NCBI GenBank assembly: GCA_038243585.1
Contig: JBBSQY010000012.1
Span: forward strand, 3,314 to 67,313
From: Candidatus Sumerlaeales bacterium
Lineage (GTDB): Bacteria > Sumerlaeota > Sumerlaeia > Sumerlaeales > Sumerlaeaceae
DNA: 64,000 bases
Direction: 5' to 3'
The notes below the pieces were generated by a model. The model was not told where the DNA came from. It did not search any database and worked only from the letters and a program-made list of their open reading frames with translations. Shown here in pieces: positions 1 to 22,870 of this stretch. Position numbers and translations under genes: made by a program. Position 1 is the stretch's first letter. Each line of letters opens with the position of its first letter.

Positions 1-1803
1 TTCGGTAATATTATGCGCACCTGGCGTTGATGGACGATTTCCGCGTAACATAAGAATTGTGCCGCCGCGAGGTCTCATTGATATGTATCCGTCATTAAAT
101 GTGTTGTATGGATTTATAATACTTCCATTTTCTGGGCCGGTATATGTCGTATCTACATAAATACTGCCTAATGCCTCAATCGCCCGGCTAAGGTTGACTC
201 TACCAGTTGTTCGATTGGCTTTAGGATCATGAATACCGTCGGCAGTCTGCCTTAGGAGGGGTTCCAGTGTATGAGGCGCTCCGTATCGTCCGATTCTCAC
301 CCGTTCCGCATGTTGCAGGCACGCCGCCGCTCCTGCTACGTATGGGCATGCGGCGGAAGTTCCACCAAAATTGGTAACAAAATTTCCAGAATTATTTCCA
401 CCTGCACCTATCGTATCACATGTATACGCGTTGTTAGAAGAACCCAGCAAAGACAACTTAGGCGAGGAATTGGAATAAGCTGTCACTTTATCCATAATAG
501 CGTCCTCAAAGAAAGCGCGTCCGCTTCCACAACTCGAAGATACGTGGGAGAGGCAGGATCCGGAATTTACGCACCAACCAAGTGTTCCTAAATTTGCCTC
601 ATATACGGCACCAACCGCCACTACGTTTGCGTTGCAAGCGGGGCTTCCCATAGAATTACAGAATCCATCATTACCTGAAGATGCAAAAATAGTTATGTTG
701 GCGGCATTACAGGCCGCTGCTATAGCGGTGTAATTACCAGTGTTGCACGTATTAGTATAATTGCCGCCGCCAAAACTAGTACTGATAATCATAATCGGGT
801 TATTCGGGTCTTTCTGCTGGTTCCGAAGACACCAATCCCAAGCGGCTTCTATAGTACCGGCGGCGGAAGATTGATTGGGGTCCGAATTTTTAGTAAGTTT
901 TAAAGCGTAAATTCGTGCAGCGTGCGCAACCCCACCAATATAATCTCCCACCGAACCTTCAGGCGGAATATCCCCCGCTGCTATTCCGGCACATGCCGTG
1001 CCGTGGTTCGCGGAAGAATGGTCTGGAGGAAGTGGATTAGTGTCTCCATCCCCATAGTCGTACCCGCCAATTACCTTTCCATTAGGGAATCCGCCGTTTC
1101 CAAGGTTTGGGTGGCGGTAGTCGACCCCTGTGTCTACAATTGCTATTGCAAGCCCCGAGCCATTGAACTCAGATCGTGTTTGCCCCGCCTGAATCAAAGG
1201 TATGCCTTGCCTGGTGTGTGGGATGACAATTTCGTCTGGAGAAATTGCCACTACATCAGGATCATTTTGCAAGAGTTGCAGTCCTTCAAAAGTGACATCA
1301 GCCGAAAAGCCAGGCACTGTCGTATATTTATGCTTGACTTTAATGATACCTGATAAGTTTCGGGCCAGCGCTTGTTCAACCTTTGTTTCATTGGTTTGTA
1401 CCAATGATTTCACCGAAGCGGGTTCGGTGTACACTGTTGTCAATTGTTTCGATTCAAATGCGAGTCTCACGATTACGGCCGTTACGGAAGTGCCTTCGCT
1501 GAACGGTTCCAGTATTTCGACATCGCTGTAAAGCTTATTGATAGGTGGTGGTGGAATCTCCAAAAAGGCCTTGTTGGCGACTGGAATGGAAGTTAAATCA
1601 AGCTGGGATGGAAGCATCGGATTTTGTGCAAGTGCAGTGGTGGAATAATCAGCAAGCGAAAGCATTGGAATTTGTGTTAGTGTGGTAGTGGCCCCGCACA
1701 CCAGCGGTAGAAGGATAAGCCCAACTGTCAGGAGCGGACGGATTTTTGGGTGTTCGAGAGCCGCTTTGAAGGGATTACTCGCTAAAATTTTATATACTGT
1801 CAC
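1..1803 (-). CDS. S8 subtilisin-like serine protease with signal peptide and I9-like propeptide; the C-terminus runs off the left edge of the window
   Basis: It is absent from the ORF track because no stop lies in the window. Hand translation of the minus strand is open from GTG 1803..1801 to position 1. The catalytic triad motifs are present: IAIVDTGVDY (Asp, near 1134), NHGTACAGI (His, near 995) and GGTSAACPYVAGAAA (Ser, near 345). A hydrophobic leader (LLTVGLILLPLVCGA) is also present. The GTG overlaps the upstream stop as GTGA; the start choice is uncertain. Confidence 0.85.
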   Translation of the reverse strand, partial: MTVYKILASNPFKAALEHPKIRPLLTVGLILLPLVCGATTTLTQIPMLSLADYSTTALAQNPMLPSQLDLTSIPVANKAFLEIPPPPINKLYSDVEILEPFSEGTSVTAVIVRLAFESKQLTTVYTEPASVKSLVQTNETKVEQALARNLSGIIKVKHKYTTVPGFSADVTFEGLQLLQNDPDVVAISPDEIVIPHTRQGIPLIQAGQTRSEFNGSGLAIAIVDTGVDYRHPNLGNGGFPNGKVIGGYDYGDGDTNPLPPDHSSANHGTACAGIAAGDIPPEGSVGDYIGGVAHAARIYALKLTKNSDPNQSSAAGTIEAAWDWCLRNQQKDPNNPIMIISTSFGGGNYTNTCNTGNYTAIAAACNAANITIFASSGNDGFCNSMGSPACNANVVAVGAVYEANLGTLGWCVNSGSCLSHVSSSCGSGRAFFEDAIMDKVTAYSNSSPKLSLLGSSNNAYTCDTIGAGGNNSGNFVTNFGGTSAACPYVAGAAACLQHAERVRIGRYGAPHTLEPLLRQTADGIHDPKANRTTGRVNLSRAIEALGSIYVDTTYTGPENGSIINPYNTFNDGYISMRPRGGTILMLRGNRPSTPGAHNITE

Positions 1804-3137
1804 TGTAGGTTCACCAACACTAGGACTAGGCCTGTTCCTTCTTTAAGTTCTGTCATGGCTTTGCCGATGACTGCTCCGTGAGAAATTTCTGTGTCTGTCG
1901 CTTTCATGGCGTGACCGGCAGTGTTGGAGGTGGTAAGTAGATCGCCAGGCGCTATTGATCCATTTTCAGCACTTACCTTTGCGTACACCCGTCCGGCCAT
2001 GGCGATCAGGTTGTTGCCGTCGGCCACGCCGTCTTGAGTGAGCTTAAGGCCCGGCCGTACGCCGCCAGCGCCGCTGATGATGCCGGCGACTTTGCGGTCG
2101 TAGGCGGTGGCGCTGGGTTTTACGTTGCCGGGATTGGCTTCGTCGATCACCATAACCGTTCCTGGTTCGGCGGAGGAGCCGTCGGTCTGATCGAAGCCCT
2201 CGGCGACGTCCGCGCCGCGAACTTCGACTACGGAAGCAGAGAGACTGTGACTAAAATACGCACCACCTAAGGCACGCACATTAAACGTCCCGACTCCTCT
2301 TGAATGGAACTCTACATCATTCTCGGTGTCAACATATCCATTAAAAACGAAGGAGCCGGCATGGTCAGCTTTTGCTTTTCTTCCAGCAGCAAAGGACGCT
2401 ATTCCGCCGGCTCGATTAAACGCTCCGCCAGGAATAGTGGCTTGATAGCCATCGGCATTATTATCGGCTCCACCTCCTACAACTCCCGTAGTATTCGGCC
2501 CACTTCCAACATTATTAGAACTGCCACCACCAATTACACCTCGGTTGGTATAAACATGATTATCAACTCCACCCGCTATTACTGCCCCGAAGATATCTGG
2601 AGCAATCTGGTTGCTTGCCGCACCGCCAATAATATTAGGGCCTAATGGGTTACGCTCAATACGCAATCCTCCACTAAGCCCCTCGGCCATTACCGCCATG
2701 GGCACTGCCTGAACCTGCGTGTGGGGCAGTAGAACGTTGTCTTCTACGCCACCGGCGACGGAGAGGTAGACGGACATGCCCGCTGGTGCGTTGTAATCCG
2801 CCGGTTCCAAGGTCTGCCCGGCGGCGGGTGTGCCTGTGCCGACGGCGTGGTTGACTACTCCGTCGGGTGACAGGACAACTTCGGCAGTTTCGGCGTAGAC
2901 GATTGTGCCGGGGTCTGTGGGGGTGGTTTTGTGGAGTATCTTGAACCACATGGTTTGGTTGCCGGAAAGCGGCGCGCCGGTAGGGGTGAAGGCTTTGCCT
3001 TGGTAGTTGAAGGTTAAGGGGACGTCGGCAAATGCTGAAGGTGCGCCGAAGATTGTGGCGGCTAGAAGAGCATACATCGCCGGCCTTGCCATAATACCAG
3101 GCGCAAACGGCCTGGCGGAAATCATTAGTTGTGTCAT
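1800..3137 (-). CDS. Secreted modular fibre/adhesin-like protein, paralog A (conserved N module, Gly/Asn-rich variable centre, conserved C module)
   Basis: 445 aa ORF with a signal peptide (ALLAATIFGAPSAFA/DVPL). Its N and C modules are about 85-92% identical to those of the two upstream paralogs. The centre is rich in GG..N..G repeats. The start overlaps the upstream stop as ATGA. Confidence 0.8.
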   Translation of the reverse strand: MTQLMISARPFAPGIMARPAMYALLAATIFGAPSAFADVPLTFNYQGKAFTPTGAPLSGNQTMWFKILHKTTPTDPGTIVYAETAEVVLSPDGVVNHAVGTGTPAAGQTLEPADYNAPAGMSVYLSVAGGVEDNVLLPHTQVQAVPMAVMAEGLSGGLRIERNPLGPNIIGGAASNQIAPDIFGAVIAGGVDNHVYTNRGVIGGGSSNNVGSGPNTTGVVGGGADNNADGYQATIPGGAFNRAGGIASFAAGRKAKADHAGSFVFNGYVDTENDVEFHSRGVGTFNVRALGGAYFSHSLSASVVEVRGADVAEGFDQTDGSSAEPGTVMVIDEANPGNVKPSATAYDRKVAGIISGAGGVRPGLKLTQDGVADGNNLIAMAGRVYAKVSAENGSIAPGDLLTTSNTAGHAMKATDTEISHGAVIGKAMTELKEGTGLVLVLVNLQ

Positions 3138-4414
3138 TGCAGGTTCACCAGCACCAGGACGAGGCCTGTTCCTTCTTTGAGTTCTGTCATGGCTTTTCCT
3201 AAAATAACGCCGCGTTCCGGGCCGGTGTCGTCGGCGCGCATGGCGTGACCTGCGGTGTTGGATGTGGTGAGGAGATCGCCGGGAGTGATCACGCCGTTTT
3301 CGGCGCTGGCTTTGGCGTAAACGCGTCCGGCCATGGCGATTAGATTGTTACCGTCGGCCACGCCTTCCTGAGTTAGCTTGAGGCCGGGTCTCACGCCGCC
3401 CGCGCCGCTGATTACGCCGGCGACCTTGCGGTCGTAGGCGATGGCGCTGGGTTTTACGTCGCCGGGATTGGCTTCGTCGATGACCATTACAGTGCCGGGT
3501 TCGGCGGCGGAGCCGTCGGTCTGATCGAAGCCCTCGGCGACGTCCGCGCCACGGACTTCGATCAGACTGGCAGACAGCTTACCATTTCCTTGAACAGCAA
3601 CTTGGCCATTATTAAAAATTTCAAGACCTTGTGTGACATTTCCATTTTCATCTGTTACTGTCCCAAATCGAATACCACCGGGCGCTTTTACATTAAATGA
3701 ACCAGCAATCGGTGGCGGTTGGTAATAATCTTGGTTATCACTAATCCAACTGCTCCATACGAAACATCCATTGGCGTTGGGACTACTTGCGCGAAAACCA
3801 GCGGGAAGTGAATGGTTACCTGTCGCATTGTTGTAGGAGCCTCCTGGGACAAACGAAAAATTTCCTGATGCAATGTTTTGATTACCGCCTAGAGACGCGG
3901 AATAAGCGCCGGTTGCCTGATTATTAGTTCCCAATGCGAACTTTTCCCCACCCAAAGTTTTCGCTATAACCGCCATGGGCACTGCCTGAATCGGCGTATG
4001 GGGCAGCAGAACATTTTCTTCTATGCCTCCGGCGACAGAAAGGTGGATGGTTGTTCCTGTGGGGGCGTTAAAATCCGCCGTTTCCAGTGACTGCCCGGCG
4101 GCGGGTGTGCCTGTGCCGACGGCGTGGTTTACTACTCCGTCGGGTGACAGGACAACTTCGGCAGTTTCGGCGTAGACGACTATACCGACGTCGGTGGGGG
4201 TGGTCTTGTGGATTATCTTGAACCACATAGTTTGGTTTCCAGAAAGCGGTGCGCCGGTTGGGGTAAAGGCTTTGCCCTGGTAGTTAAAGGTCAGCGGGAC
4301 TTCGGCAAACGCGGAGGGTGCGCCGAAGATTGTGGCGGCTAGAAGGGCATACATCGCCGGCCTTGCCATAATATTTGGCGTGAACGGCTTGGCAGAAATC
4401 ATTAGTTGTTTCAT
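3134..4414 (-). CDS. Secreted modular fibre/adhesin-like protein, paralog B
   Basis: 426 aa ORF with the same leader and the same N and C modules as paralog A. The central segment is different (LGTNNQATGAYSASLGGNQNIASGNFSFVPGGSYNNATGN...). It has ATGA overlaps at both ends. Confidence 0.8.
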   Translation of the reverse strand: MKQLMISAKPFTPNIMARPAMYALLAATIFGAPSAFAEVPLTFNYQGKAFTPTGAPLSGNQTMWFKIIHKTTPTDVGIVVYAETAEVVLSPDGVVNHAVGTGTPAAGQSLETADFNAPTGTTIHLSVAGGIEENVLLPHTPIQAVPMAVIAKTLGGEKFALGTNNQATGAYSASLGGNQNIASGNFSFVPGGSYNNATGNHSLPAGFRASSPNANGCFVWSSWISDNQDYYQPPPIAGSFNVKAPGGIRFGTVTDENGNVTQGLEIFNNGQVAVQGNGKLSASLIEVRGADVAEGFDQTDGSAAEPGTVMVIDEANPGDVKPSAIAYDRKVAGVISGAGGVRPGLKLTQEGVADGNNLIAMAGRVYAKASAENGVITPGDLLTTSNTAGHAMRADDTGPERGVILGKAMTELKEGTGLVLVLVNLQ

Positions 4415-5859
4415 TGCAGGTTCACCAGTACCAGGACGAGGCCTGTTCCTTCTTTGAGTTCTGTCATAGCTTTGCCGATAACTGCGCCGTGGGAAATTTC
4501 TTTGTCGGAGGCTTTCATGGCGTGGCCGGGGGTGTCAGCGGTGGTTAAAAGATCGCCTGGGGTGACGGGGCCGTTTTCGGCACTGACCTTGGCGTATACC
4601 CGGCCGGCCATGGCGATCAGGTTGTTTCCGTCGGCCACGCCGTCTTGAGTGAGCTTGAGGCCCGGCCTTACGCCGCCCGCGCCGCTGATGATGCCGGCGA
4701 CTTTACAATCGTAGGCGGTTGCGCTGGGTTTGACGTCGCCGGGATTTGCTTCGTCTATCACCATAACCGTTCCAGGTTCGGCGGAGGAGCCGTCGGTCTG
4801 GTCGAAGCCCTCGGCGACATCCGCGCCGCGGACTTCTATTGTTTTTGCGGAGAGAAGATCAGATACAAAGACAGGGCCGTCAAATGATCCAGCTCTGAAA
4901 TCCGATCTTGCGTATATACCGACTGCACCATTAGTTCCAATGCCTACCACCCCTGCGTGATTTACAGCACTAGTGTATCCTCCAATTGCGTCATTGTTAG
5001 TGCTTTCGCTACGTATTTCAGGGGATTGTATAGAAGTAGCATAGATAGGCCCATCAAATGCACCAGCTCTTCCAGTATCGGATCTACCATAAATTCCCAC
5101 GCCACCGTTAGTACCTATGCCTGTTATGCCTGAGTGATTTGCAGTTGTACTGTATCCTGCAATTGAATCAGCGACTGGGCTACTTGCTCTTATTGTGCCC
5201 GCTGCCAAGCTATCCAACTTTAGACTGTTGGTTGTAATAGTAGTAGCCAGCACAGCCACGGGTACTGCGTGAATTTGCGTGTGAGGCAGCAGAACGTTTT
5301 CTTCTACACCTCCGGCGACGGAGAGGTGGATGGTTGTGCCTGCTGGGGCGTTATAGTCTGCCACTTCCAGTGTTTGTCCGGCGGCGGGTGTGCCTGTACC
5401 GACGGCGTGGTTGACTATTCCGTCGGGTGACAGGACAACTTCGGCGGTTTCGGCGTAGACGACTGTGCCGGCGTCTGTGGGAGTGGTTTTGTGGAGTATC
5501 TTGAACCACATGGTTTGGTTGCCGGACAGCGGCGCACCGGTGGGGGTGAAGGCTTTTCCCTGATAGTTGAAGGTGAGGGGGACGTCGGCGCGGACGGCGG
5601 TGGGAGCGAGAAGTAAAATGGAGGCGGCTGTTAAGTAATGTGTCGCCTGTATGACAGTGTAGCTCTTGGGAGCGCCGGCATCCCGTCGGCTTAGGCTCCG
5701 CATGACAGCCGCTCTGCTTGCGCCGGAGAGACTTGCGACTGGAATTTCATTCATTTTCGCGGTGTCTGACTGTGCGCCTGGGATTAGACCGCCGGGATGC
5801 CGGAGCTCCCAGGAAATGCCGCTGGCTTGGGTTTTTGTTGAACTTTTAAATGGTGTCAT
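4411..5859 (-). CDS. Secreted modular fibre/adhesin-like protein, paralog C (divergent leader, internally duplicated central cassette)
   Basis: 482 aa ORF. The conserved N module starts at aa 92 (DVPLTFNYQGK) and the C module ends LVLVLVNLQ. The ATG at 5859 sits at the same CAATGA junction as in paralogs A and B. Internal starts at 5754 or 5703 (MRSLSRR...LLLAPTAVRA) are also possible. Confidence 0.75.
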   Translation of the reverse strand: MTPFKSSTKTQASGISWELRHPGGLIPGAQSDTAKMNEIPVASLSGASRAAVMRSLSRRDAGAPKSYTVIQATHYLTAASILLLAPTAVRADVPLTFNYQGKAFTPTGAPLSGNQTMWFKILHKTTPTDAGTVVYAETAEVVLSPDGIVNHAVGTGTPAAGQTLEVADYNAPAGTTIHLSVAGGVEENVLLPHTQIHAVPVAVLATTITTNSLKLDSLAAGTIRASSPVADSIAGYSTTANHSGITGIGTNGGVGIYGRSDTGRAGAFDGPIYATSIQSPEIRSESTNNDAIGGYTSAVNHAGVVGIGTNGAVGIYARSDFRAGSFDGPVFVSDLLSAKTIEVRGADVAEGFDQTDGSSAEPGTVMVIDEANPGDVKPSATAYDCKVAGIISGAGGVRPGLKLTQDGVADGNNLIAMAGRVYAKVSAENGPVTPGDLLTTADTPGHAMKASDKEISHGAVIGKAMTELKEGTGLVLVLVNLQ

Positions 5860-5940
5860 TGCAGGTTTACCGGCTCCAAAGCTAGGCCTGTGCTTTCTTA
5901 GGGTTTTGTATTGCGATGATAGCTTGATGTGACATCGGTT
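5856..5940 (-). pseudogene. Vestige of the 3' end of a fourth paralog of the fibre-like gene family
   Basis: On the plus strand, 5853-5912 (gtgtcattgcaggtttaccggctccaaagctaggcctgtgctttctt...) aligns by hand at about 45/59 nt with the 3' ends of paralogs A to C (gtgtcattgcaggttcaccagcaccaggacgaggcctgttccttctt...). It keeps the CAATGA junction but carries an in-frame TAA. Homology fades by about 5940. Confidence 0.6.
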
Positions 5941-5955
5941 GAGTCTTTAATGGGA

Positions 5956-6003
5956 AAGCGGTATCTGAACGGGTAACCCCGTCCTGCTACCGCACTCCAA
6001 ATT
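5956..6003 (+). repeat. 48 nt hairpin repeat ending in CCGCACTCCAAAT (family R3), copy 1
   Basis: aagcggtatctgaacgggtaaccccgtcctgctaccgcactccaaat has an outer stem GCGGTA/TACCGC. It is near-identical in length and ends to 32717..32764. Confidence 0.7.
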
Positions 6004-6066
6004 TGCTGGCTGTGGTTGCCGGGTTGGTTATTGTTATTAAGGCGTTCATTTGTGAATTTATTATGC

Positions 6067-6348
6067 TTAATCAGACGCATAGAGGTGCCAGAGGCGAGCG
6101 GCGGTTGGCTGTGGTGGGAAATATCCGGCATCCCATAGGTATGAGAATCCAAGAGCGGCGGCTGAGCCGTTTGCCGTCTGGGACATTCCTACGAGGGGCT
6201 GGCCCACGGTGGAGAACATGACTACTCCAACGCCCTGGCTGAATCCACCGCCGGAATTGATGGTGTCGGTGGCTGCGCTATAGCCGGATCGCGGGAGTAC
6301 AAGCAGAATGCCCAGGGCTACAAAAGTAAATCCGAATGCTAATCTCAT
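6067..6348 (-). CDS. Small secreted hypothetical protein (93 aa)
   Basis: The ORF has a clear signal peptide (MRLAFGFTFVALGILLVLPRSGYSA) and lies directly upstream of the paralog array on the same strand. No family was recognised. Confidence 0.4.
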   Translation of the reverse strand: MRLAFGFTFVALGILLVLPRSGYSAATDTINSGGGFSQGVGVVMFSTVGQPLVGMSQTANGSAAALGFSYLWDAGYFPPQPTAARLWHLYASD

Positions 6349-6504
6349 GTTTTATTCCTGATGTGGAAAGTAGAAAACAACCGTCATTGGTTCGGACAGA
6401 CGGCCATTCGGAATTCTTCTTAGCGGGATATTTTTTGGTGGCAAGCACTATCTTCAGGATTATAGTGTTTTGGGTTATAACTGGCCAAAAACGCGAATAT
6501 CGAT

Positions 6505-6745: not shown

Positions 6746-7744
6746 TCAGCATTTACTCCAGAAGAAATGCACCAGATTGTCAACTTGATCCACCCCCAGC
6801 TTCTCTGGAAAATAATTAATATAGCCACACAGTGCCGATGGCGTCAGGACTTTCGCATAGGATTTTGCGGGCTTAGGCGGCAGGCTGCTGCGGGTTGCGA
6901 TTATGGTGCGAAGTTTTGTTTCCATACCGGCTTCTTTGAGCATCCTGTAGCAGAGGTAAGAGGCGCGGGCTACCTGCTTGTAGGGGTCATGGAAGTTTCC
7001 GGAGTCGGTGAAGTTCCGGCTCCAGAGTTTTACCTCGATGAGGTATACCCCCGGCGGACCAACGACGACGTAGTCAATTTGTGCCGTCTTTAAATGCTCC
7101 CCTTCGTAGTACAGGTAGCGGTTGTATTCCAGTCGCACATCGGCCAGGACGGTGAAGGAATCTGGCAGAGATTCCAAGTGGCGAAGGACGTCGATTTCGG
7201 CAACAGCGCCGGCGTATTCTTTACTCTCTAAGGCTGCGGTCGCTCCATCTAGTTTTTTGCGGAAAGGTTGGCGGTAGGACTCCACAAGATGGTGTTGGCT
7301 GTTGATATGATTTTGGAGGATCGCTTCTGTATGGAGGGGTAGTTTTTCCAAGTCGATGGCGCGCCGGGCATGCTGCTTTTGCAGATAGAGGCGGCGCAGT
7401 TTCAAGGGTCCCCAGAGGAACCACCTCTGCATCTGGCGGGCTGTGGATATTTTACCTTCTGGACTAAGGCGCTGATCAAGCTCAGCAATGTCGTAGGTAT
7501 GTTTGGTTTGCAGAGCGGCCAGTGCGGTGACATACTCCGCACGCTTCAGCGACACCAGATCTGTCAGTTCCCGCGTGGTGAGATTGAAGGCGTCCAGAGC
7601 GTCGATTTCGCTTTGGTTCCAGTCCTTTTCCAGTTGCGGCACCAGTGCGCGTAAATCATCTGGGGTGTCGGGATATAAGCCTATACATTTTAGCGGGGTT
7701 TGTATGTCTGTCCAGGCTCCGCTCTTGCCGTATACCTGGGCCAT
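6746..7744 (-). CDS. NERD (nuclease-related domain) protein with a helical N-terminal region
   Basis: 332 aa ORF. The C-terminal half has the NERD-like core AQIDYVVVGPPGVYLIEVKLWSRNF, preceded by GAVAEIDVLRHLESLPDSFTVLADV. Confidence 0.7.
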   Translation of the reverse strand: MAQVYGKSGAWTDIQTPLKCIGLYPDTPDDLRALVPQLEKDWNQSEIDALDAFNLTTRELTDLVSLKRAEYVTALAALQTKHTYDIAELDQRLSPEGKISTARQMQRWFLWGPLKLRRLYLQKQHARRAIDLEKLPLHTEAILQNHINSQHHLVESYRQPFRKKLDGATAALESKEYAGAVAEIDVLRHLESLPDSFTVLADVRLEYNRYLYYEGEHLKTAQIDYVVVGPPGVYLIEVKLWSRNFTDSGNFHDPYKQVARASYLCYRMLKEAGMETKLRTIIATRSSLPPKPAKSYAKVLTPSALCGYINYFPEKLGVDQVDNLVHFFWSKC

Positions 7745-7802: not shown

Positions 7803-8519
7803 TTACAGGCTCAAATCCTTTGGCCACAGGAAGTATGGCCCGAACCTTTTAGAGTAGCGATATTCTCCGCCAGCGGCTTTGCCGGTCTCTGTGAGGGTGT
7901 GTTTGGCGGGTTCTCCTTCGAGAAATCCCTTCGCCAGCAGCTTTTCTATGAGTTCCTGAGTTTTACAACCCAGTTCTTTTGCAAGCCTGGACGTGGTGAG
8001 CTTTTCTGACTCTTCCTCTTCGGCGGCTATCAGGGCTGATTCATCGGGTTCTTTGGTCTTCTCAACAGTCTCGGCAGACAGACGAATCTCTTCGCTTACA
8101 CGGATCAGCCGCTGAGCCTCTTCATAGGTGTCTTTATACAGATCCGGCTCTTTGTCCCGCTCTACGAACACGCCCATTTCGTTGTTATTAACCTGGCTGA
8201 ATTCGTAGAGGTTCATGGAGGTGATAATTGCGGATGATTCGTTGAGGTAGCACTTTGCGTGAAGGTTCTGGCAGAAGCTGGTCCTGACAAAATCGAGGGA
8301 GCGAAGCCACTTTATCTCCTGGGGTTGCAGTTCGCTTTTGCCGAATACCACGCGGACGTCGATCTTGAGTCGGTTTTTATCCTCGAGGAGTTCTTTCATG
8401 CGGTCGTTGAACTTGAGGAACGGGCTGATGATGATCAACCGGTCTTTTGCGCCTTTGATGAGTTCTTCGAGGAAGTAGTTTGTCGCGCTGGTATTTAGGA
8501 ATTTAGCCATGGCGACCAT
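7803..8519 (-). CDS. Phospholipase D-family (HKD) nuclease-like protein with a C-terminal helix-turn-helix-like tail
   Basis: 238 aa ORF with a single HKD motif context (NLHAKCYLNESSAIITSMNLYEFSQVNNNEMGV). The layout is Nuc/restriction-endonuclease-like (DRLIIISPFL...). The C-terminal ~70 aa is basic/helical (TTSRLAKELGCKTQELIEKLLAKGF). Confidence 0.7.
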   Translation of the reverse strand: MVAMAKFLNTSATNYFLEELIKGAKDRLIIISPFLKFNDRMKELLEDKNRLKIDVRVVFGKSELQPQEIKWLRSLDFVRTSFCQNLHAKCYLNESSAIITSMNLYEFSQVNNNEMGVFVERDKEPDLYKDTYEEAQRLIRVSEEIRLSAETVEKTKEPDESALIAAEEEESEKLTTSRLAKELGCKTQELIEKLLAKGFLEGEPAKHTLTETGKAAGGEYRYSKRFGPYFLWPKDLSL

Positions 8520-14084: not shown

Positions 14085-14987
14085 TTATTTTACGTATTTA
14101 ATTGCGTCGGCCACCACGACATAACCACCGGCGGCCCAACAGGACAGTTGCGTTGTTGAACTTCCGCTGAGATACTTGGTGCCGAGCAGATTCCAACGAC
14201 CACCGTTATTCTGTTGATTGGCCGTTACGCTGGAGCCGTCTGGCAAGATGTATGGCGCGCCAGACGACCGGTTTGTTCCGGCGGTCCACCAGCCATATAT
14301 TTTGTAAGTGCCGGCAGTCAGGCTTGCGGTCCAGCTGGCTGGTTCACTAACAGGTGCCGTGGCGTGAAAGCGGTAGTTTGAGCCGTATTTGTCTGCGGCG
14401 GAAGTGCCCGTTGACCAGCTTCCTACAACGCTGAAGCCGGAGCTGGTGTTATCGACCACAACAGAGACGGCGGCGATGTCGTTCAGTCCGGGATATTCTT
14501 TCGGAACCTCCGTATTGCGGGTCACGTAGCTGTTGGTCGCGCCTGGTACGAGCTGGGCCACGCCGTCTTTACGCACTTCGAAGTGAAGATGCGCGCCTGT
14601 GGTGCAGCTACCTGTATTTCCGGAGCGGGCTGCGCTCACATTGCGTGTTACCGCGGTTCCAACGCCGAGAATGGCGCTGCTGCTATGGAGAAACCTGGTT
14701 TCCCATCCGCCACCGTAGCCAATTTTGTAAATGTTCCCGCCGCAACTGCTATAGGCGTAGGAAGTAACTGTGCCGTTGCCGGGCGAACCCAACACGGTTC
14801 CGCTGGGCACTGCTATATCGATGCCGTAGTGATAGTTGGAGCAGCCGCTACATGGCGAACTTCTTGGGCCAAACGGGCTGCTGACGCGTCCGCTGCAGGG
14901 CCAGACAATGCGTCCGGCTTCAAGAGTGGCAGGTGCCAGGACTGTAAACAAGATTGCGCCACAAAGTAATATCCGAGTTGTCGACAT
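14085..14987 (-). CDS. M23-family metallopeptidase with a C-terminal beta-rich accessory domain
   Basis: It has a signal peptide and the M23 motifs HYGIDIA and GAHLHFEV. The C-terminal ~130 aa is a Trp/Gly/Ser-rich domain (GSWSTGTS...GGRWNLLG...). Confidence 0.85.
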   Translation of the reverse strand: MSTTRILLCGAILFTVLAPATLEAGRIVWPCSGRVSSPFGPRSSPCSGCSNYHYGIDIAVPSGTVLGSPGNGTVTSYAYSSCGGNIYKIGYGGGWETRFLHSSSAILGVGTAVTRNVSAARSGNTGSCTTGAHLHFEVRKDGVAQLVPGATNSYVTRNTEVPKEYPGLNDIAAVSVVVDNTSSGFSVVGSWSTGTSAADKYGSNYRFHATAPVSEPASWTASLTAGTYKIYGWWTAGTNRSSGAPYILPDGSSVTANQQNNGGRWNLLGTKYLSGSSTTQLSCWAAGGYVVVADAIKYVK

Positions 14988-15564: not shown

Positions 15565-17664
15565 TTAACGCAGTTTCATGCCGGGGATGTATCTGCAAAA
15601 ACGATTTCTTCCGGAGCGTTTGGCGTTATATAAGGCGGTGTCTGCGAGTTGGGTTAGTTCTGTGGCGTTTACGGAATCTTCCGGGCAGGTGGCTATTCCC
15701 GCGCTTACGCCAATTGCTACTGGTTTACCATCAAGGTCATATGGCTGTGTTATGGTTTGCACGACTTTTTCACCCAGAATGATTGCGCCTTTATCGTTTG
15801 AGAGACTGGCCTGAATGATGGCGAACTCGTCGCCGCCTAGCCTGGCAACGGTGTCATCACGGCGAGCAAGCTTCAGCAAACGCCGGCCAACTTCCTGTAG
15901 CACCTGATCCCCCGCCGCGTGACCCAGGGTGTCGTTTATGGGTTTAAAAAGGTCGAGGTCGAGCATGTGAATTGCAAAGGGGCTGCCGTTGAAAAGGAAA
16001 AGGTCCATGGCCTCTTGCAAGCGCTGATCAAAGAGTTCACGATTGGCCAGGCCAGTGAGGGGATCATAGAGAGCCATTTTGAGAGCCATTTTTTCAACGT
16101 GCGCCCTGCTGAAGAAATCGAGCAGGTCCGCTTGCAATTTCGCACCGAATTCTTTTTGCGCTGCTGTCCAGGGTTCTGAATTGAAGCGGGTCTGTTGCAC
16201 CCATGTGGCAAAGGAGCTGCGCGGCGATTTGGGCTCGAGATCGCCATCCGGTTGATCAATCTGCTGGGGCTTGCCCGCCCATGAAATTGTTTTAATGATT
16301 TCCGGGCGAAGCAGCGCCACGAAGCCCTGATCGCCTAAGGGGATGAACAGAACGCCGCAGGCGCGAGAGGCGAGCTTCGGGCAAGATAGCAAGGAGCTGG
16401 GCAGTGTCTGACAGGAGCTGATTTCGCCGACAGGCAGAGTTTTAAACCAGTCGCCCAATTGTTCCAGCTCATTTTTATCGGGTATGTCTCCGGAAACGTA
16501 ATCATGTCCATCATAGCGCAGCCACGCTCCACTGGCCGAAAGCAGCTCTCGTATGAGAGGCAGGTGGAGTGACACCCCGCCTGCGATATCCTTTCGGGAG
16601 GTGGAAAGGGCGCCCTTTAAACGGGAGAGTTGCTGGCGAAGAGCCGCGCGCGTATCGCCTTCCAAAAGATCAAGCCGGGTCTCCAGGTGAATGGATAAGA
16701 TGCGGGACATTTCTTCAAACGCGAGGCGATCGCGGAGCGCCAGGGTGCGGGGCGATTTGTGGTGACAAGCGACCAGGCCGTATAATTTCCCCGCTACGAT
16801 AACGGACACGCTGAAAGATGCATGAACACCCATATTTTTCATGTATTGGATGTGAACCGGGTGAACCGCTCGCAGCATAGACCCGGTAAGATCCAGGGGA
16901 AGCGCATCGCTTTCCAACGCAAGCAGCGGTACATCCGGAGAATTAACATCGCTTATAATTCGCTGCCGGTTTATGGTGTAGAGGCGGTGAGCTGCGGGTG
17001 AGATATCGCTGGCGGGAAAATGTAGGCCGAGATAAGATTCGATGCCTGGCTGGCGCATCTCCTGGACCACCGCACCGTGCATATCCGGGAAAAACTCGTA
17101 AAGTAACACACGATCGAATCCGGAACGGTTAAACATCCACCGGACGAGCAGATTGCGGCATTGATCAAGAGTCCGGGCCTCTTCCAGTTCTGCGAGAAAA
17201 ACGATGCGTTTGCTGTAATTCCACCAGTGGCTTGTTGTTCCGGATGCCACTTCGAATTCAAAGATCAAATGATCATCCTGCTGGTGAGCGACTACGTTAA
17301 GCGGGACTGGAAAAATCCCCGTGGGCAATAAGAGCATGCCGGTTTTCAACGCTAGCTGAAGCATTTCCGGCCAGCGGGATGAAAAGAGACTTTCGGCATC
17401 TCGTCCCAGCAGATCTTCAGGTTGCATCCCTAAAACATCGGCTGAATTCGCCGAACAATAAACGATGCGGTTATGGGACGTATGGACCGCCAATAAAGCT
17501 CCGCAGGGCTGGATATGACCCATAAGGTGCAGAGGATCATTTTTGCAGTCGCTGAAGGAATTGCTAGAATAGCTTCCTGATGCCGCCCCGACCGGGGTAT
17601 TTGTTTTGGTCACTTCAATTTCGATTCCCGCTTCCGGAAAGTTCTGATTAAAGCTACAAAACAA
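15565..17664 (-). CDS. Bacteriophytochrome-like photosensor (PAS-GAF-PHY) fused to a GGDEF diguanylate cyclase
   Basis: The N-terminal chromophore Cys context is DCKNDPLHLMGHIQPCGALL. The GAF signature is HIQYMKNMGVHASFSVSVIV..LYGLVACHH. The C-terminal domain contains RLGGDEFAI. Confidence 0.85.
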   Translation of the reverse strand: MFCSFNQNFPEAGIEIEVTKTNTPVGAASGSYSSNSFSDCKNDPLHLMGHIQPCGALLAVHTSHNRIVYCSANSADVLGMQPEDLLGRDAESLFSSRWPEMLQLALKTGMLLLPTGIFPVPLNVVAHQQDDHLIFEFEVASGTTSHWWNYSKRIVFLAELEEARTLDQCRNLLVRWMFNRSGFDRVLLYEFFPDMHGAVVQEMRQPGIESYLGLHFPASDISPAAHRLYTINRQRIISDVNSPDVPLLALESDALPLDLTGSMLRAVHPVHIQYMKNMGVHASFSVSVIVAGKLYGLVACHHKSPRTLALRDRLAFEEMSRILSIHLETRLDLLEGDTRAALRQQLSRLKGALSTSRKDIAGGVSLHLPLIRELLSASGAWLRYDGHDYVSGDIPDKNELEQLGDWFKTLPVGEISSCQTLPSSLLSCPKLASRACGVLFIPLGDQGFVALLRPEIIKTISWAGKPQQIDQPDGDLEPKSPRSSFATWVQQTRFNSEPWTAAQKEFGAKLQADLLDFFSRAHVEKMALKMALYDPLTGLANRELFDQRLQEAMDLFLFNGSPFAIHMLDLDLFKPINDTLGHAAGDQVLQEVGRRLLKLARRDDTVARLGGDEFAIIQASLSNDKGAIILGEKVVQTITQPYDLDGKPVAIGVSAGIATCPEDSVNATELTQLADTALYNAKRSGRNRFCRYIPGMKLR

Positions 17665-19609: not shown

Positions 19610-22600
19610 TTATGGAATGTCGAAATCCTTGTACACCTGATCCTGGTCGGGGACGGTGAATTGCTCCATGCGTAGCCCTGTATTGGCCAGCTTGTTGATC
19701 GTTCCTCCGAAGGTTATCTCATAGGGACCAGGCTCCAGATTGGGGAGAACATAGCTGCCGTTTTTCGGCTGGAAGCTATGGACGCTTTGGCCAGCTATAG
19801 TGTTTCGGGCAATGATTACCAGCGCCTCCGGTTCGCCACTTGTAAAGATTGTGCCTCTCATGGTTACGCTGCCCAGGCGGAAGTATAGTTCACGAGTTTC
19901 CCCGGATGCCAGCAGGATGGTTTGTACGGTGGATTGGGCGGTCACCGTATAGTGGCCCGGCTGGACATTTGAAAACTTAAAACTTCCGTCGGGTCCGGAT
20001 TGGCTGGTTAATTCCAGTGTCTGCCCTCTGACATTTGTCCTGGCGGTCACAGGAACGCCGGCCCGGCCCTCCCCTGTCGGGCTGGATACGACGAAGCCGG
20101 TGATGGCTGCGGATTCGCTGATCAAGATATCTCCGAGGTCGGAAAAAGCGCCTTCTTCCACCTCTATTTCTTTATCAACCGCGACCATGGGCGGCTTCGG
20201 CATGGCGGTAATTCGCAGTTTTCCGGAAGGTATGTTCGCAATCAGAAATGTCCCGTCCGCGTCGGTGACGGAGTTGCCGGCCGGGGTTGTGCTGAATTGA
20301 ACGGTTTCAAAGGCGGCTATGGGCACGTCGGGCGCCGGCTTTTTGGAATCCGCAAAAAGGACGCGGCCGCTTACGCCGGAAGGCAATCCCAGTTCGAAGA
20401 TCTTTGTCGTTTCCGATCCCGTTTTTGGGGCGACCACCTCAAAAGATTTCGTCGCGTAACCTTCTGCGGAGATTTTCAGATATGTGGATTGACCGGGTTC
20501 TAAATAGAAGCGGAAGCCGCCCGGCCCTTCGCCGTCCGTGAGTATTTCTCCTGCGCCGGGAGCTTTAAAATCCGTTATAGGCTGTCGGGTGGTCCCGTCG
20601 ATCACACGCCCCCTGATGGTCACCTGGGTGTCCATCTTAATCATCAGCTTTTTGTTGCCGGCTTTTACTGTTACCTGCTTCATCAACTGGGGATTATGGG
20701 AGATGACTATGAGTGTTACGTCCCCCGGAGACAGGCCTCCTATCTTGAAATGGCCGCTCTCGTCTGTCTTCTGGACAGGCAGCCCGGTGTGTAGAATATT
20801 GATATGGGCGGTAACGGGTTTGCCGCCTGCGCCGACCACGTGTCCCTCTACCGTCATATCTTCGCCGAGGCTTATATCCACGCCAGATTTCGTTTCTCCC
20901 GGAGCCAGATCGACTGTGGCACCGCCGGGGGCATAACCTTTGGCAAAGGCCGTAAAAGTCATCTGCCCCGGAGCCATGCTTTCGAGGCGGTAGTTGCCAT
21001 CGCTGTCGGAAGTCCCAAGAGTTCTTCGATCCACAACTGTGCTGAATCCGACTGAGTAATGGTCTGACGTATCAATTTTGGCCCCGCTGACGGGATCACC
21101 GGATGGATTTAGGACTCGGCCTTCCACTGTTGCGCCTTCGTCCAGTATAATTATTATATCGGTCTGATCGTCGCTGGAAACGGGGTATTCGATAGACCGC
21201 TTGAAAGCATAGCCCGGCGCGGTAACTTCTATCATTCCATTCTGGAAAGGCAGGAGCTCGAAGGTAAAGCGGCCGTCGGCATCGGAGGTTGTGCGGTTGT
21301 AATTGGTAGCGGAAAATTTTATTGAGCCGTTCCACGTGAGGGAGGCACCGGCTACGGGAGCGCCTTCTTTGTTTTGTATGTAGCCGCTTACTCGCACGAC
21401 GGCGGTCATTGGCATATCATGCACTAGAGAATCGGAATCCGTAGGAAGATCGACGCCGGAATATGCAGGAACGCCGTTGTGGTAGGACGTGCGGGGGTTG
21501 GCGGCAATGGTGTAACCCGGTAGTTCTACGGTAATATCCGGGCTGGCATCAGGGGGAATTTTCGAAAAGGAATATCTGCCGGCGGCGTCGGTGACGGCGA
21601 GGTCACTAGCCTGGTCACCGCTGTAGAACTGCACATTTGCGGAGGGCAGCGGTTCGCTGGTGTCTTTGTCTAAGACGGTTCCCGTCAGGTTATACCCGGA
21701 AAAGACGCGGACGGTTATGGCGGTGGTTTCTTTGTCGGTGAGTATGGGAGACAAGGCATCGGACGGTTCGCCGGGTGCGGACCAGAGGGGGATGCCGCTG
21801 TTGGCGGCTTTGACTTCGATGCTTACGGGGCCGGAGGGAAGCTGCTCCAGATTAAAGGAGCCGTCTGCCTCTGTTGTGGCGTGGGCGGCGGCTTTCCCGG
21901 CGGGAAGAACGCTGACTTTGACGCCGGCGGCGGGAGAATCGCCGGGAAACATCAACACGTGGCCGGCGATAGCGGCAGTGCCGCTGGTGATGCGAAGGTG
22001 GACGGGGCCGGTGGTGGGGACGAGAATATTGGTGGCCGTGGAGGGGCAGCCTTTCTGGGAAGGGTAGTCTCTCGCTTCCGCGCCGATGGTGGCGATGCCT
22101 GCTGGGACGTTCTCTATTATGAAGTCGCCGGACACAGAAACAGTGGTCCGCTGGTTGTCGTAATTCCAGCCGTCGCTAAGGGGGTCTTCCGAACGCAGGT
22201 GGACATTCGCGGTGCTGACGGGATTGTCGTTGAAGTCGGTTACCCGGCCGCGGATAGTATGAAGCGCGGGGATGACAAAATCCTGAGTCAGGCGGCGGAT
22301 GCGGGGTTCGGTGGTGGCATCGCTGGCGGAAGCGAGGTCTGCAATGGCGCGGACGGGTCTGCGCAGTTCGACTCGCATGGACCCGCCGTCGCGGCCGCTG
22401 AGAGTATAACGGCCGTTCGCATCTATGGGTGAAACGTCGAGGCGATAACTTTGACTGCTGACAGGCTGGAGAGGATCGCCGTTTCGCCATAGCTCAATGG
22501 TGGCGGTAGTGTCGGGAGCGCCATTTTCGAATCTAACAGTCCCGGTTACTATTAAGGTGGGTTCTGTGATTTTGCGATTATCCGGACGGGTGCGGTGGGC

Positions 22601-22870
22601 AGAGGACGCTGAATCATTTTGCGATGATCCACGATTTTTCTGTGCGCCACGAGCGCTGGTATTTTCCCTGGACTCTAACGTGGTGATTTTCGCGGCGGCG
22701 GGAGTTTCGGAGGCGATTGACACGTTGCGCGCTGGCGAATTGGTGGTAGCACCGTCATCGCAGCCGGGACATAGCAGGGCGACCATTACGGCTATGGTAA
22801 CGCAGGCGATGCGACCGCTGCGAAACATTTGAGTTACTGCGTAGAGCGAGGGGCTGGGGTGAAATGTCAT
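19610..22870 (-). CDS. Large secreted/lipoprotein made of about 10 or more carboxypeptidase-regulatory-like (CarboxypepD_reg) beta-sandwich repeats
   Basis: 1086 aa of recurring ~85 aa units of the form G.V.D..G.P...A.V.........TD..G.F.....P.G.Y.... The N-terminus contains a lipobox-like ALLCPGC. An alternative start exists at 22828. Confidence 0.7.
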   Translation of the reverse strand: MTFHPSPSLYAVTQMFRSGRIACVTIAVMVALLCPGCDDGATTNSPARNVSIASETPAAAKITTLESRENTSARGAQKNRGSSQNDSASSAHRTRPDNRKITEPTLIVTGTVRFENGAPDTTATIELWRNGDPLQPVSSQSYRLDVSPIDANGRYTLSGRDGGSMRVELRRPVRAIADLASASDATTEPRIRRLTQDFVIPALHTIRGRVTDFNDNPVSTANVHLRSEDPLSDGWNYDNQRTTVSVSGDFIIENVPAGIATIGAEARDYPSQKGCPSTATNILVPTTGPVHLRITSGTAAIAGHVLMFPGDSPAAGVKVSVLPAGKAAAHATTEADGSFNLEQLPSGPVSIEVKAANSGIPLWSAPGEPSDALSPILTDKETTAITVRVFSGYNLTGTVLDKDTSEPLPSANVQFYSGDQASDLAVTDAAGRYSFSKIPPDASPDITVELPGYTIAANPRTSYHNGVPAYSGVDLPTDSDSLVHDMPMTAVVRVSGYIQNKEGAPVAGASLTWNGSIKFSATNYNRTTSDADGRFTFELLPFQNGMIEVTAPGYAFKRSIEYPVSSDDQTDIIIILDEGATVEGRVLNPSGDPVSGAKIDTSDHYSVGFSTVVDRRTLGTSDSDGNYRLESMAPGQMTFTAFAKGYAPGGATVDLAPGETKSGVDISLGEDMTVEGHVVGAGGKPVTAHINILHTGLPVQKTDESGHFKIGGLSPGDVTLIVISHNPQLMKQVTVKAGNKKLMIKMDTQVTIRGRVIDGTTRQPITDFKAPGAGEILTDGEGPGGFRFYLEPGQSTYLKISAEGYATKSFEVVAPKTGSETTKIFELGLPSGVSGRVLFADSKKPAPDVPIAAFETVQFSTTPAGNSVTDADGTFLIANIPSGKLRITAMPKPPMVAVDKEIEVEEGAFSDLGDILISESAAITGFVVSSPTGEGRAGVPVTARTNVRGQTLELTSQSGPDGSFKFSNVQPGHYTVTAQSTVQTILLASGETRELYFRLGSVTMRGTIFTSGEPEALVIIARNTIAGQSVHSFQPKNGSYVLPNLEPGPYEITFGGTINKLANTGLRMEQFTVPDQDQVYKDFDIP

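Follow-up and report, generated by a model that had tools for sequence, protein, structure and literature searches.

Three tandem genes for short mosaic adhesive trimer-like fibres with a phage gp12-like C-terminal module, coupled to a tail-bearing subtilase in a Candidatus Sumerlaeales bacterium: a probable copy of a widespread fibre cassette

Results

Organisation of the fibre and subtilase genes

The DNA analysed in this work (the window) is a stretch of 64,000 nucleotides from a Candidatus Sumerlaeales bacterium (NCBI GenBank assembly GCA_038243585.1, contig JBBSQY010000012.1, positions 3,314 to 67,313 of the forward strand), and the genes considered here code for three fibre-like proteins and a subtilase at its left end. 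Five co-directional open reading frames (ORFs) are present on the minus strand of positions 1..6348. The first one (6067..6348) codes for a small protein of 93 amino acids with an N-terminal hydrophobic leader, and it is followed by the fibre paralogs A (4411..5859, 482 amino acids as called), B (3134..4414, 426 amino acids) and C (1800..3137, 445 amino acids) and by an S8 subtilase gene (1..1803), which starts with a GTG codon at 1803 and is open at the left edge of the window. The overlaps read in the sequence are ATGA at the A/B (CAATGAAA) and B/C (CAATGACA) junctions and GTGA between fibre C and the subtilase (CAGTGACA). An independent public gene caller has predicted the same four proteins, namely the three fibres (P0001-P0003) and the subtilase (P0124, with the same GTG start). 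An earlier description made from the DNA letters alone (the sequence-only reading) had reported the three fibre ORFs, their 4-nt overlaps, a subtilase with its own leader and propeptide and a small signal-peptide ORF upstream, and all these features have been recovered.

Constant modules and variable shafts of the fibres

The three fibre proteins share one architecture, with a Sec-type leader, a constant N module, a variable shaft and a constant C module. Identities measured on a MAFFT alignment were 85-88% among the N modules (112 amino acids) and 85-93% among the C-terminal stretches (141 amino acids), close to the 85-92% previously estimated by hand. When the codons of the constant modules were compared, third positions were 61-74% identical versus 91-95% at positions 1 and 2, and therefore both modules are maintained by purifying selection and are not simply fresh copies from a recent duplication. 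The leaders of B and C are nearly identical. That of A is different and over-long (91 amino acids from the start at 5859), and for this reason the true start of A is probably an internal ATG such as M53 (MRSLSRR...).

The N modules are located at 5251..5586 in A (residues 92-203), 3968..4303 in B (residues 38-149) and 2691..3026 in C (residues 38-149). Directly after the leader, each of them matched the NCBIfam model NF053851 (Bdello_MAT_N, "mosaic adhesive trimer family chimeric fiber protein"), with E-values of 4.7e-7 for A (29.7 bits), 1.2e-7 for B (31.7 bits) and 2.4e-6 for C. All three scores (27-32 bits) lie below the cut-off of 60 bits, and the matches cover profile positions 4-80 of 162. 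Among 76 relatives this model was matched by 20, all far below the cut-off (best E 1.6e-8). The N-terminal consensus of the wider family, ..YQG.L...G.P..G.....F.L.D...G......V.V..G.F...L.FG...F.....WL...V....L.PRQ.L...PYA, reads as more typical than the divergent version in the window. Searched against the PDB, the whole-family profile (A1) retrieved four solved fragments of Bdellovibrio mosaic adhesive trimer (MAT) fibres (Bd2133 8ond, E 9.7e-7; 8ojn, E 2.6e-4; also 8oml and 8ol4). In Pfam, A and B had no match at E <= 1 and C had a single one, at chance level (CdsD_PD2, E 0.25), and nothing significant was obtained with PHROGs (one chance-level match on B, phrog_14221, E 0.18).

The variable shaft of A (4828..5250) consists of two repeats of about 55 amino acids, Gly-rich and of the type ..GY.T..NH.G..GIGTNG.VGIY.RSD..AG.FDGP.., as read from the alignment; repeats of a similar type are found before the C module in another locus (L080). 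The shafts of B (3551..3967) and C (2217..2690) contain Gly/Asn-rich repeats similar to YadA/UspA1-type heads (for C, a weak match to the UspA1 head 3ntn, E 0.1). One and the same connector, ..FVW/FVF....F.V(K/R)A.GG.., comes after the repeats in both shafts, which are diverged and of unequal length, and the connector is also found in the family consensus (..SFAAG..A.A...GSFVW.D....F...A.GGV..GT). The sequence-only reading had considered the three central segments unrelated and those of A and B as Gly/Asn repeats reminiscent of autotransporters or tail fibres; this holds for the separate nature of A and for the YadA-head-like repeats of B, whereas B and C share repeat type and connector and A is built of its own Gly-rich repeats. 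The head-like repeats of B and C could also suggest that the fibres are trimeric autotransporter (type Vc) adhesins. However, Pfam revealed no YadA-type C-terminal membrane anchor, the C-terminus has been modelled as a soluble pair of beta-tulips (see below) and the UspA1 match is marginal, so that the probability of this explanation is considered negligible.

Fold and distribution of the C module

The C modules correspond to 4414..4827 in A (residues 345-482), 3137..3550 in B (residues 289-426) and 1803..2216 in C (residues 308-445). No family of Pfam or NCBIfam covers this module, which is very common. A word-indexed protein search with the fibres gave more than 2,226 matches, in which only the last 140 residues or so were matched, with 50-72% identity across phyla. 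Among the 120 matches listed, the alignment reaches the end of the module in 119 and is cut at the protein's end in one, and it extends to the last residue of the protein in 118. As the match ends with the protein in nearly all of them, a shared architecture is indicated rather than a chance resemblance. A filter-free phmmer search against 1.84 billion cluster representatives (50% identity) retrieved 17,935 sequences at E <= 1e-3 and 3,071 at E <= 1e-30.

An AF2 model of the C module, obtained with the paralog C copy and an alignment of 118 sequences, was all-beta with a predicted local distance difference test (pLDDT) value of 90.4, and its predicted fold is a tandem beta-tulip. Foldseek comparison with the PDB identified the C-terminal fragment of bacteriophage phi29 gp12 (3gqh) and the pre-mature gp12 (3suc), both with probability 1.00 and template modelling (TM) scores of 0.60-0.64, as well as trimeric capsid cement proteins of the lambda gpD type. 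In BFVD, a collection of predicted viral structures, the model matched the C-termini of uncharacterised phage fibre-like proteins (E down to 2e-12, TM 0.75-0.81, 24-34% identity); some BFVD matches are annotated as "preneck appendage protein" or "tail fiber", the former with TM values of 0.71-0.75. The D4 domain of gp12 is an autochaperone made of two beta-tulip domains around a three-fold axis, for which sequence homology to bacterial adhesins has been noted (bioRxiv 10.1101/216911), and it is cleaved off after folding (PMC3357383).

The gp12 sequence was taken from the phi29 genome and aligned to the hidden Markov model (HMM) of the C-module family. The boundary motif G-A-D-(L/V)-A-E-x-F of the family falls on W-S691-D692-F-A-E-Y-F of gp12, with ADLAEPFE placed on residues 691-698 and the whole alignment spanning 691-736. 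The 3gqh chain has 163 residues, which is the length of gp12 692-854, and therefore the released fragment begins at D692. Across all 118 sequences the G, D, E and F of GADxAExF do not vary, and both proteins finish in a similar way immediately before the stop (..GYGVAIVLVK and ..GTGLVLVLVNLQ). With fold, position, site motif and C-terminal strand in agreement, homology between the C module and gp12 D4 is considered highly probable. The sequence-only reading was unable to assign this module to a named family, and had mentioned a tail-fibre chaperone domain as a result contrary to its proposal; a compact homolog of such an autochaperone is what the comparison points to. By analogy with gp12, the predicted processing site of the window fibres would be the A↓D bond of EVRGA↓DVAEGF (the arrow marks the bond), that is, A346↓D347 in A (D codon 4819..4821), the bond before D291 in B (codon 3542..3544) and that before D310 in C (codon 2208..2210), which coincides with the place where cleavage had been expected from the sequence alone. 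In a different locus (L091, 1..513) the boundary reads GGS↓DLSEQF, with Ser at P1 as in S691↓D692 of gp12.

The subtilase and its C-terminal tail

The S8 protein belongs to the Pfam family Peptidase_S8 (PF00082, E 1.5e-32) and carries a propeptide with a weak match to Inhibitor_I9 (E 2.9e-4, at 1225..1419). The catalytic domain (202..1161) retains D224, H267, N378 and S483 in their canonical motifs. The full protein (P0124) has 616 amino acids, the last 15 of them encoded outside the window. Its end (residues 546-616, 1..168 on the minus strand) forms a separate tail domain that was recognised by a tail HMM with E 4e-12 for the window copy and 2e-20 for P0124. The consensus of this tail, about 70 amino acids in length, is VIYVDAAYSGPEDGTFANPFNTVSEAVNAAPNGGTLVIKPGTYSETLTINKPMTLRAPGGTVTIGQ up to the stop, with the motif ..YVD...G.E.G....P(Y/F)NT..E......GG...I..G.Y......I.KPMT....G.V.IGQ at the very end of the protein.

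Among 120 S8 homologs, a strong tail was found only in P0124 and in three other proteins (P0125, P0141 and P0162), and each of these three is encoded 27-32 nt after a C-module fibre. Another one with a weak tail (P0211) follows a protein ending in peptidase S74. Fibre linkage was absent for the tail-less P0127 and P0157, and also for P0201, which has a weak and partial tail match.

Compared with the PDB, the tail profile gave matches to right-handed beta-helix enzymes and phage tailspikes, in the region of their N-terminal cap and first rung (PL6 alginate lyase 7o7t, E 1.8e-5; Pel9A; 8fqc; 9rkv). The tail thus resembles in sequence a beta-helix N-cap, yet it is located at the extreme C-terminus. 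No homology to cohesins, dockerins or phage adaptors was detected in it. A search of a large protein set with the tail profile yielded only 9 short fragments. A metagenomic protein of 131 amino acids (P0251) contains in series a GQP...GFW motif, a stretch NYPNPF similar to those of the type IX secretion system (T9SS) and a tail-like segment; the small protein described below and the tail may be naturally fused in it, or else the call is chimeric or frameshifted.

Fibre cassettes in other genomes

A scan of one genome per species identified 79 fibre loci in more than 12 phyla. The general survey comprised 82 loci, 73 genome loci had enough downstream sequence for the analysis of partners, and the window was represented by its first 12 kb only. 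Carriers belong to Planctomycetota, Verrucomicrobiota, Bacteroidota, Calditrichota, Krumholzibacteriia, Zixibacteria, Chloroflexota, Fibrobacterota, Desulfobacterota, Deinococcota and others. A tblastn search with the window S8 detected the protease at only 2 of the 79 loci, a misleading result because the catalytic domain of the partner is interchangeable; ORF clustering and HMM mapping have revealed a wider linkage. A tail-bearing ORF abuts the stop of the C-module fibre in 44 of the 73 loci and is present somewhere in the locus in 55, and about three-quarters of the loci have a hydrolase gene directly downstream of the fibre. The linkage to secreted proteases proposed in the sequence-only reading is thus confirmed across genomes, with the three strong-tail S8s mentioned above among its examples.

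Pfam analysis of 62 tail proteins identified reprolysin-like M12B peptidases (11 proteins), Sortilin/BNR propellers (8 proteins), trypsin-like peptidases (7 proteins), astacins (6 proteins), S8 (3 proteins) and C10 (3 proteins), with only one protein each for M4, M6, M23, M43, M66, C39-like and Kelch. The partners therefore span at least 10 peptidase families in addition to BNR and Kelch propellers. At 10 more loci (L043, L048, L054, L058, L061, L064, L068, L075, L076 and L079) a C10 peptidase of the streptopain family is encoded directly after the fibre and carries a second, unrelated tail (..YRYFDQDA.G....F.AGQ.LQ.L.PG..); most fibre-linked C10 peptidases have this second type instead of the beta-helix-cap-like tail. 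Several loci, such as L037, L063 and L012, contain two to four tail proteins per fibre.

These data bear on the proposal, made in the sequence-only reading, that maturation of the fibres depends on the subtilase. The enzyme would then be a dedicated protease that cuts the fibres at or near EVRGA↓DVAEGF, or removes some other pro-segment, and the fibres would be inactive without it. Its translational coupling to fibre C through GTGA, the recurrence of tail-bearing S8s beside fibres and the predominance of proteases among the partners agree with this role, as do the leader and propeptide that would bring the S8 to the same compartment as the fibres. However, the boundary motif is invariant while the partners belong to peptidase families of different mechanism and specificity, at least 9 of the 62 tail proteins are BNR or Kelch propellers and not proteases, about a quarter of the loci lack a hydrolase directly downstream and some have several partners per fibre. 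The motif, moreover, aligns with the known self-cleavage site of gp12. Because of the invariance of the motif before such diverse partners, the loci without a downstream hydrolase and those with two to four, maturation by the subtilase is regarded as quite unlikely.

Tandem paralogy, also expected from the sequence alone, was found again in other genomes: two or more C-module fibres are present in 10 of the 82 loci, and two or more fibres of any type in 37. As in the window, tail proteins are encoded after the C-module fibres of L041 (three fibres) and L052 (four fibres). Peptidase S74 (PF13884) is an intramolecular chaperone known from K1F endosialidase, phage T5 pb1 and MyRF. PF13884 was not matched by the window proteins, but sibling fibres that share the N domain end in S74 in L053 and L082, and in a C1q domain after a gp5-like helix in L033. 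In L089, a short protein ending in S74 stands directly before an S8. The gp12-type module therefore fills a slot that is held elsewhere by S74, which provides independent support for a chaperone role. The idea of secreted modular fibres whose ends are constant and whose middle can be swapped, advanced in the sequence-only reading, was borne out by the structural matches to MAT fibres, by the sub-threshold MAT N-domain match and by these siblings with other tips.

Regulatory genes were frequent near the cassettes, with an extracytoplasmic function (ECF) sigma factor and a Ser/Thr kinase, often with WD40 or TPR repeats, at 28 of the 82 loci, and Y_Y_Y-type sensor kinases or response regulators at 17. 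These flanking genes suggest a dedicated regulation of the cassette. Neither the sigma factor/kinase pair nor the Y_Y_Y regulators were found in the part of the window included in the survey.

The only cultured carrier found was Engelhardtia mirabilis Pla133 (L003, 9839..12009 of NZ_CP036287.1), with a minimal version of the cassette. It encodes a protein of 205 amino acids with little beyond the C module, without N domain or obvious leader, followed by a tail-bearing zincin (HELGHNLGANH), and an ECF sigma factor with a Ser/Thr kinase is located upstream. Complete fibre cassettes or fibre plus C10 cassettes were also present in a contig binned as an ANME-1 Methanophagales archaeon (L057), in Heliobacteriaceae (L028) and in Thermotogae (L043), organisms with very different envelopes; either horizontal transfer or mis-binning would account for cassettes in these archaeal or distant bins. 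In L082 (9722..11103), the tail-bearing S8 is followed by an ORF of 171 amino acids without Pfam match and by a right-handed beta-helix protein of 289 amino acids with a dockerin, a curious neighbour given the likeness of the tail to a beta-helix N-cap.

The small GQP-motif protein

A family of small proteins with the core W.TIDGGGG.S.GG.Y.L.GTIGQPDAG...GG.Y.L.GGFW is encoded near the fibres in 52 of the 82 survey loci and in 49 of the 73 genome loci; in general form these proteins have a leader and then GGG..S.GG....L.GT(I/V)GQP ... GG(F/Y)W. When the small protein of the window was used alone in phmmer, its similarity to the relatives was weak (E about 1e-3). In an alignment of 44 sequences, however, it keeps the five nearly invariant columns (G33, G49, Q50, G67 and W72), and for this reason it is classed, from its sequence, as a probable member, short and divergent. 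The C-terminus of these proteins varies with the lineage and may be dockerin-like, a T9SS sorting domain or a YLP box, and the window copy is devoid of any such anchor tail. This protein family is the third conserved component of the cassette and possibly acts as a lineage-specific anchor. The NCBIfam model CPR_pilus_PamT was also considered for the small proteins, and it was judged uninformative (E about 1e-3; cut-off 240 bits).

Transcription signals and genomic surroundings

A sigma-70-like promoter match (TTGGCC-18-TATAAT, 6459..6488, minus strand) lies about 110 nt upstream of the small ORF. It is a consensus match only, in 10 of 12 positions, and possibly marks the start of the operon. 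The sole terminator-like hairpin found on the minus strand is at 2370-2354, inside gene C. With this gene layout, a single transcription unit comprising the small ORF, the three fibre genes and the S8 gene is plausible.

The rest of the window is ordinary chromosome, with genes for MutS, TrpD, TreS, a phytochrome-GGDEF protein and a resistance-nodulation-division (RND) pump, and no phage genes were found among the other genes of the 64 kb. The subtilase and the relatives of the fibres show affinities to Planctomycetota and Verrucomicrobiota. The other proteins known to have the C-module fold come from phages and giant viruses, and the locus might therefore be taken for the remnant of a prophage or tailocin tail fibre. 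Against this, all three fibres have Sec-type leaders, the neighbours are chromosomal, and the cassettes of other genomes have genes for ECF sigma factors, Ser/Thr kinases or sensor kinases on their flanks. The C module gave no tblastn match in 50,697 phage genomes and a single locus in a scan of IMG/VR, and the prophage reading has been rejected as very improbable.

Directly upstream of the fibre operon, a NERD nuclease-related protein (6746..7744, minus strand, E 1.9e-13) and a phospholipase D (PLD)-like protein with an IF2_N-like C-terminal segment (7803..8519, minus strand) are encoded, and they may constitute a defence or nuclease pair. Other minus-strand genes code for a secreted M23 peptidase fused to a Golvesin_C domain (14085..14987), a bacteriophytochrome-GGDEF protein (15565..17664) and a protein of 1,086 amino acids built of eight CarboxypepD_reg repeats (19610..22870). 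On the plus strand, the last 80 residues or so of the product of 41623..43071 are weakly similar to the S-layer glycoprotein family of anammox Kustd1514 (E 9e-7, far below the cut-off), a likeness that, taken with the Planctomycetota and Verrucomicrobiota affinities mentioned above, is reminiscent of the PVC group.

Discussion

Proposed function of the cassette

The present analysis has established the architecture of the fibres, the homology of their C module in fold and site motif, the conservation of both constant modules under purifying selection and the gene linkages. On this basis the operon is interpreted, with moderate confidence, as one copy of a widespread fibre cassette, composed of MAT-like fibres with a probably self-released, gp12-D4-like C module, a partner hydrolase that bears a tail and a small protein. 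The trimeric state, the self-cleavage, the binding partners and the biological role are what we infer from these data.

After Sec export, and by analogy with gp12 D4 and S74, the C module would trimerise and template the shaft, with nucleation from the C-terminal end. Self-cleavage at the invariant GA↓D-V-A-E-G-F would then remove it and make the variable segment the distal tip. Attachment to the cell would be the task of the proximal N domain, perhaps by way of the small choice-of-anchor protein, and the swappable shaft or head segment would determine specificity. The release of gp12 is said to require ATP; as the fibres are exported via Sec, an ATP-dependent release like that of gp12 could not operate outside the cytoplasm. 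The subtilase would be an effector and not a dedicated maturase, one of a set of secreted hydrolases, for the most part proteases, that can replace one another. Enzyme bodies that vary while their tail stays constant are what would be expected of a tag for docking or targeting, and therefore the S8 is read as a coupled effector. The tail would physically couple the enzyme to the fibre system, and the cell would thus display an adhesive fibre together with a degradative enzyme, a combination of adhesion and local proteolysis that could serve for feeding on particles, remodelling of the matrix or attacking other cells.

A broader proposal is put forward tentatively, as a possibility rather than an expectation. 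The cassettes of the different phyla would constitute a single type of surface system, a fibre plus a docked enzyme, in which an anchor protein with the GQP motif and a dockerin-like, T9SS or other tail fixes the fibres to the envelope of each lineage, the C module assembles the trimer and is shed, and proteases or propellers dock by their beta-helix-cap-like tail. If this were true, the system would be a cellular counterpart of the tailspike-depolymerase complexes of phages, gripping and digesting particles, biofilm matrix or other cells, and a docking interface common to all would be the reason why the C module and the tail are so extremely conserved.

Several points weigh against the proposed function of the cassette. 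Trimerisation, cleavage and surface location are inferred for every member. The N-module matches remain under the NCBIfam cut-off and cover half of the model. Taken alone, the sequence score between the C module and gp12 is weak (6.6 bits, with an E-value valid for a one-sequence search only), and P1 is Ala or Gly in the C-module family versus Ser in gp12. The AF2 model of the tail, based on 12 sequences, was poor (pLDDT 59) and its Foldseek matches were not significant, S8 is rare as a partner (5 of the 82 loci), and the linkage between tail and fibre would also be explained by co-regulation or by a shared export route. Finally, the C module is conserved far beyond the needs of a mere folding aid, and it could be retained rather than released.

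Retention of the C module would make it a permanent distal trimerisation knob and a platform on which the tail of the hydrolase, the small GQP protein or the two together could dock, with the variable middle as a spacer or secondary binder. The identity of 50-72% across more than 12 phyla versus 24-34% to the phage counterparts suggests extra interaction constraints, the gpD-like cement proteins, which are structurally related, form stable trimers and are not released, and the tail of the partners is co-conserved. The conservation of D-x-x-E-x-F exactly at the N-terminal edge of the module is nevertheless hard to explain without processing, the equivalent position in MAT-like siblings is occupied by S74, which is released, and in a fibre it is normally the receptor-binding tip that varies. 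Retention is accordingly considered unlikely, and a self-released C module is preferred.

Significance of the cassette

In limited literature searches, the wider cassette of interchangeable tail-bearing hydrolases and GQP protein appears to be undescribed, while the fibres themselves are variants of known MAT-like and gp12-like proteins. The results provide a structural and a proposed mechanistic assignment for a very large module, with about 18,000 clusters at 50% identity, that is covered by neither Pfam nor NCBIfam, and they carry the idea of mosaic adhesive trimers beyond the predatory Bdellovibrio, into phyla that include Planctomycetota, Verrucomicrobiota, Bacteroidota and Chloroflexota. 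They also delineate a conserved three-part cassette, consisting of an anchor-like small protein, a fibre and a tail-bearing hydrolase, in which the tail is kept and unrelated protease families are swapped. Should the tail serve for docking, it would represent a new way for bacteria to display degradative enzymes and a portable tag for protein engineering. The predictions are testable, as the cultured strain Engelhardtia mirabilis Pla133 carries the minimal version.

Comparison with known systems

The combination of a constant module on interchangeable enzymes beside a fibre or scaffold recalls the branched receptor-binding complexes of phages and the docking of cellulosomes, an analogy in which binding is hypothetical on the side of the cassette. 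YadA and UspA1 trimeric autotransporters have in common with the shafts of B and C the Gly/Asn-rich head-type repeats, but the window fibres have no membrane anchor domain and follow a different logic of export and anchoring.

Peptidase S74 shares with the C module its C-terminal position and the presumed job of a self-released trimerisation chaperone, and both alternate on sibling fibres, although the fold and the motif (SDxxxK in S74) are unrelated. With phi29 gp12 the C module has in common a C-terminal tandem beta-tulip placed after a shaft that would likewise be beta-helical and trimeric, the motif (S/A)↓D-x-A-E-x-F and a hydrophobic end of the type ...G.G(V/L).(I/L)VLV. On the other hand, the C module is about 25 residues shorter and lacks the insertion of gp12 between the tulips, the pairwise similarity is marginal, P1 is Ala/Gly and not Ser, and the fibres are Sec-exported and cellular instead of viral.

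The MAT fibres of Bdellovibrio bacteriovorus are described, in passages of Caulton et al. 2024 (PMC10769870), as proteins with a signal peptide, a conserved N domain of about 130 amino acids presumed to lie at the cell surface, trimeric shafts and swappable tips, and the self-cleaving S74 chaperone ends 13 of 21 of them according to the same passages. The window fibres are alike in the signal peptide, the swappable distal modules and the existence of several paralogs per genome, and would resemble them in a conserved beta-rich N domain after the leader and a repetitive trimer-type shaft. Some relatives in the same type of cassette end in S74, and the alternation of S74 with C1q on siblings that share the N domain parallels that of MATs with and without S74. 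They are different in their size (426-482 amino acids versus roughly 920 to over 1,030 for two MATs in passages of PMC10769870), in an N module that scores half the NF053851 cut-off and in a C-terminus that is neither a variable tip nor S74 but a conserved gp12-D4-like module. Cassette fibres are also found in non-predatory phyla such as Planctomycetota, Verrucomicrobiota, Bacteroidota and others, and beside them tail-bearing hydrolases and the GQP protein are encoded, neither of which is mentioned in the protease-related passages of PMC10769870. The most fitting description of the window proteins is that of short mosaic fibres of a MAT-like type, whose C-terminal end is of a third kind.

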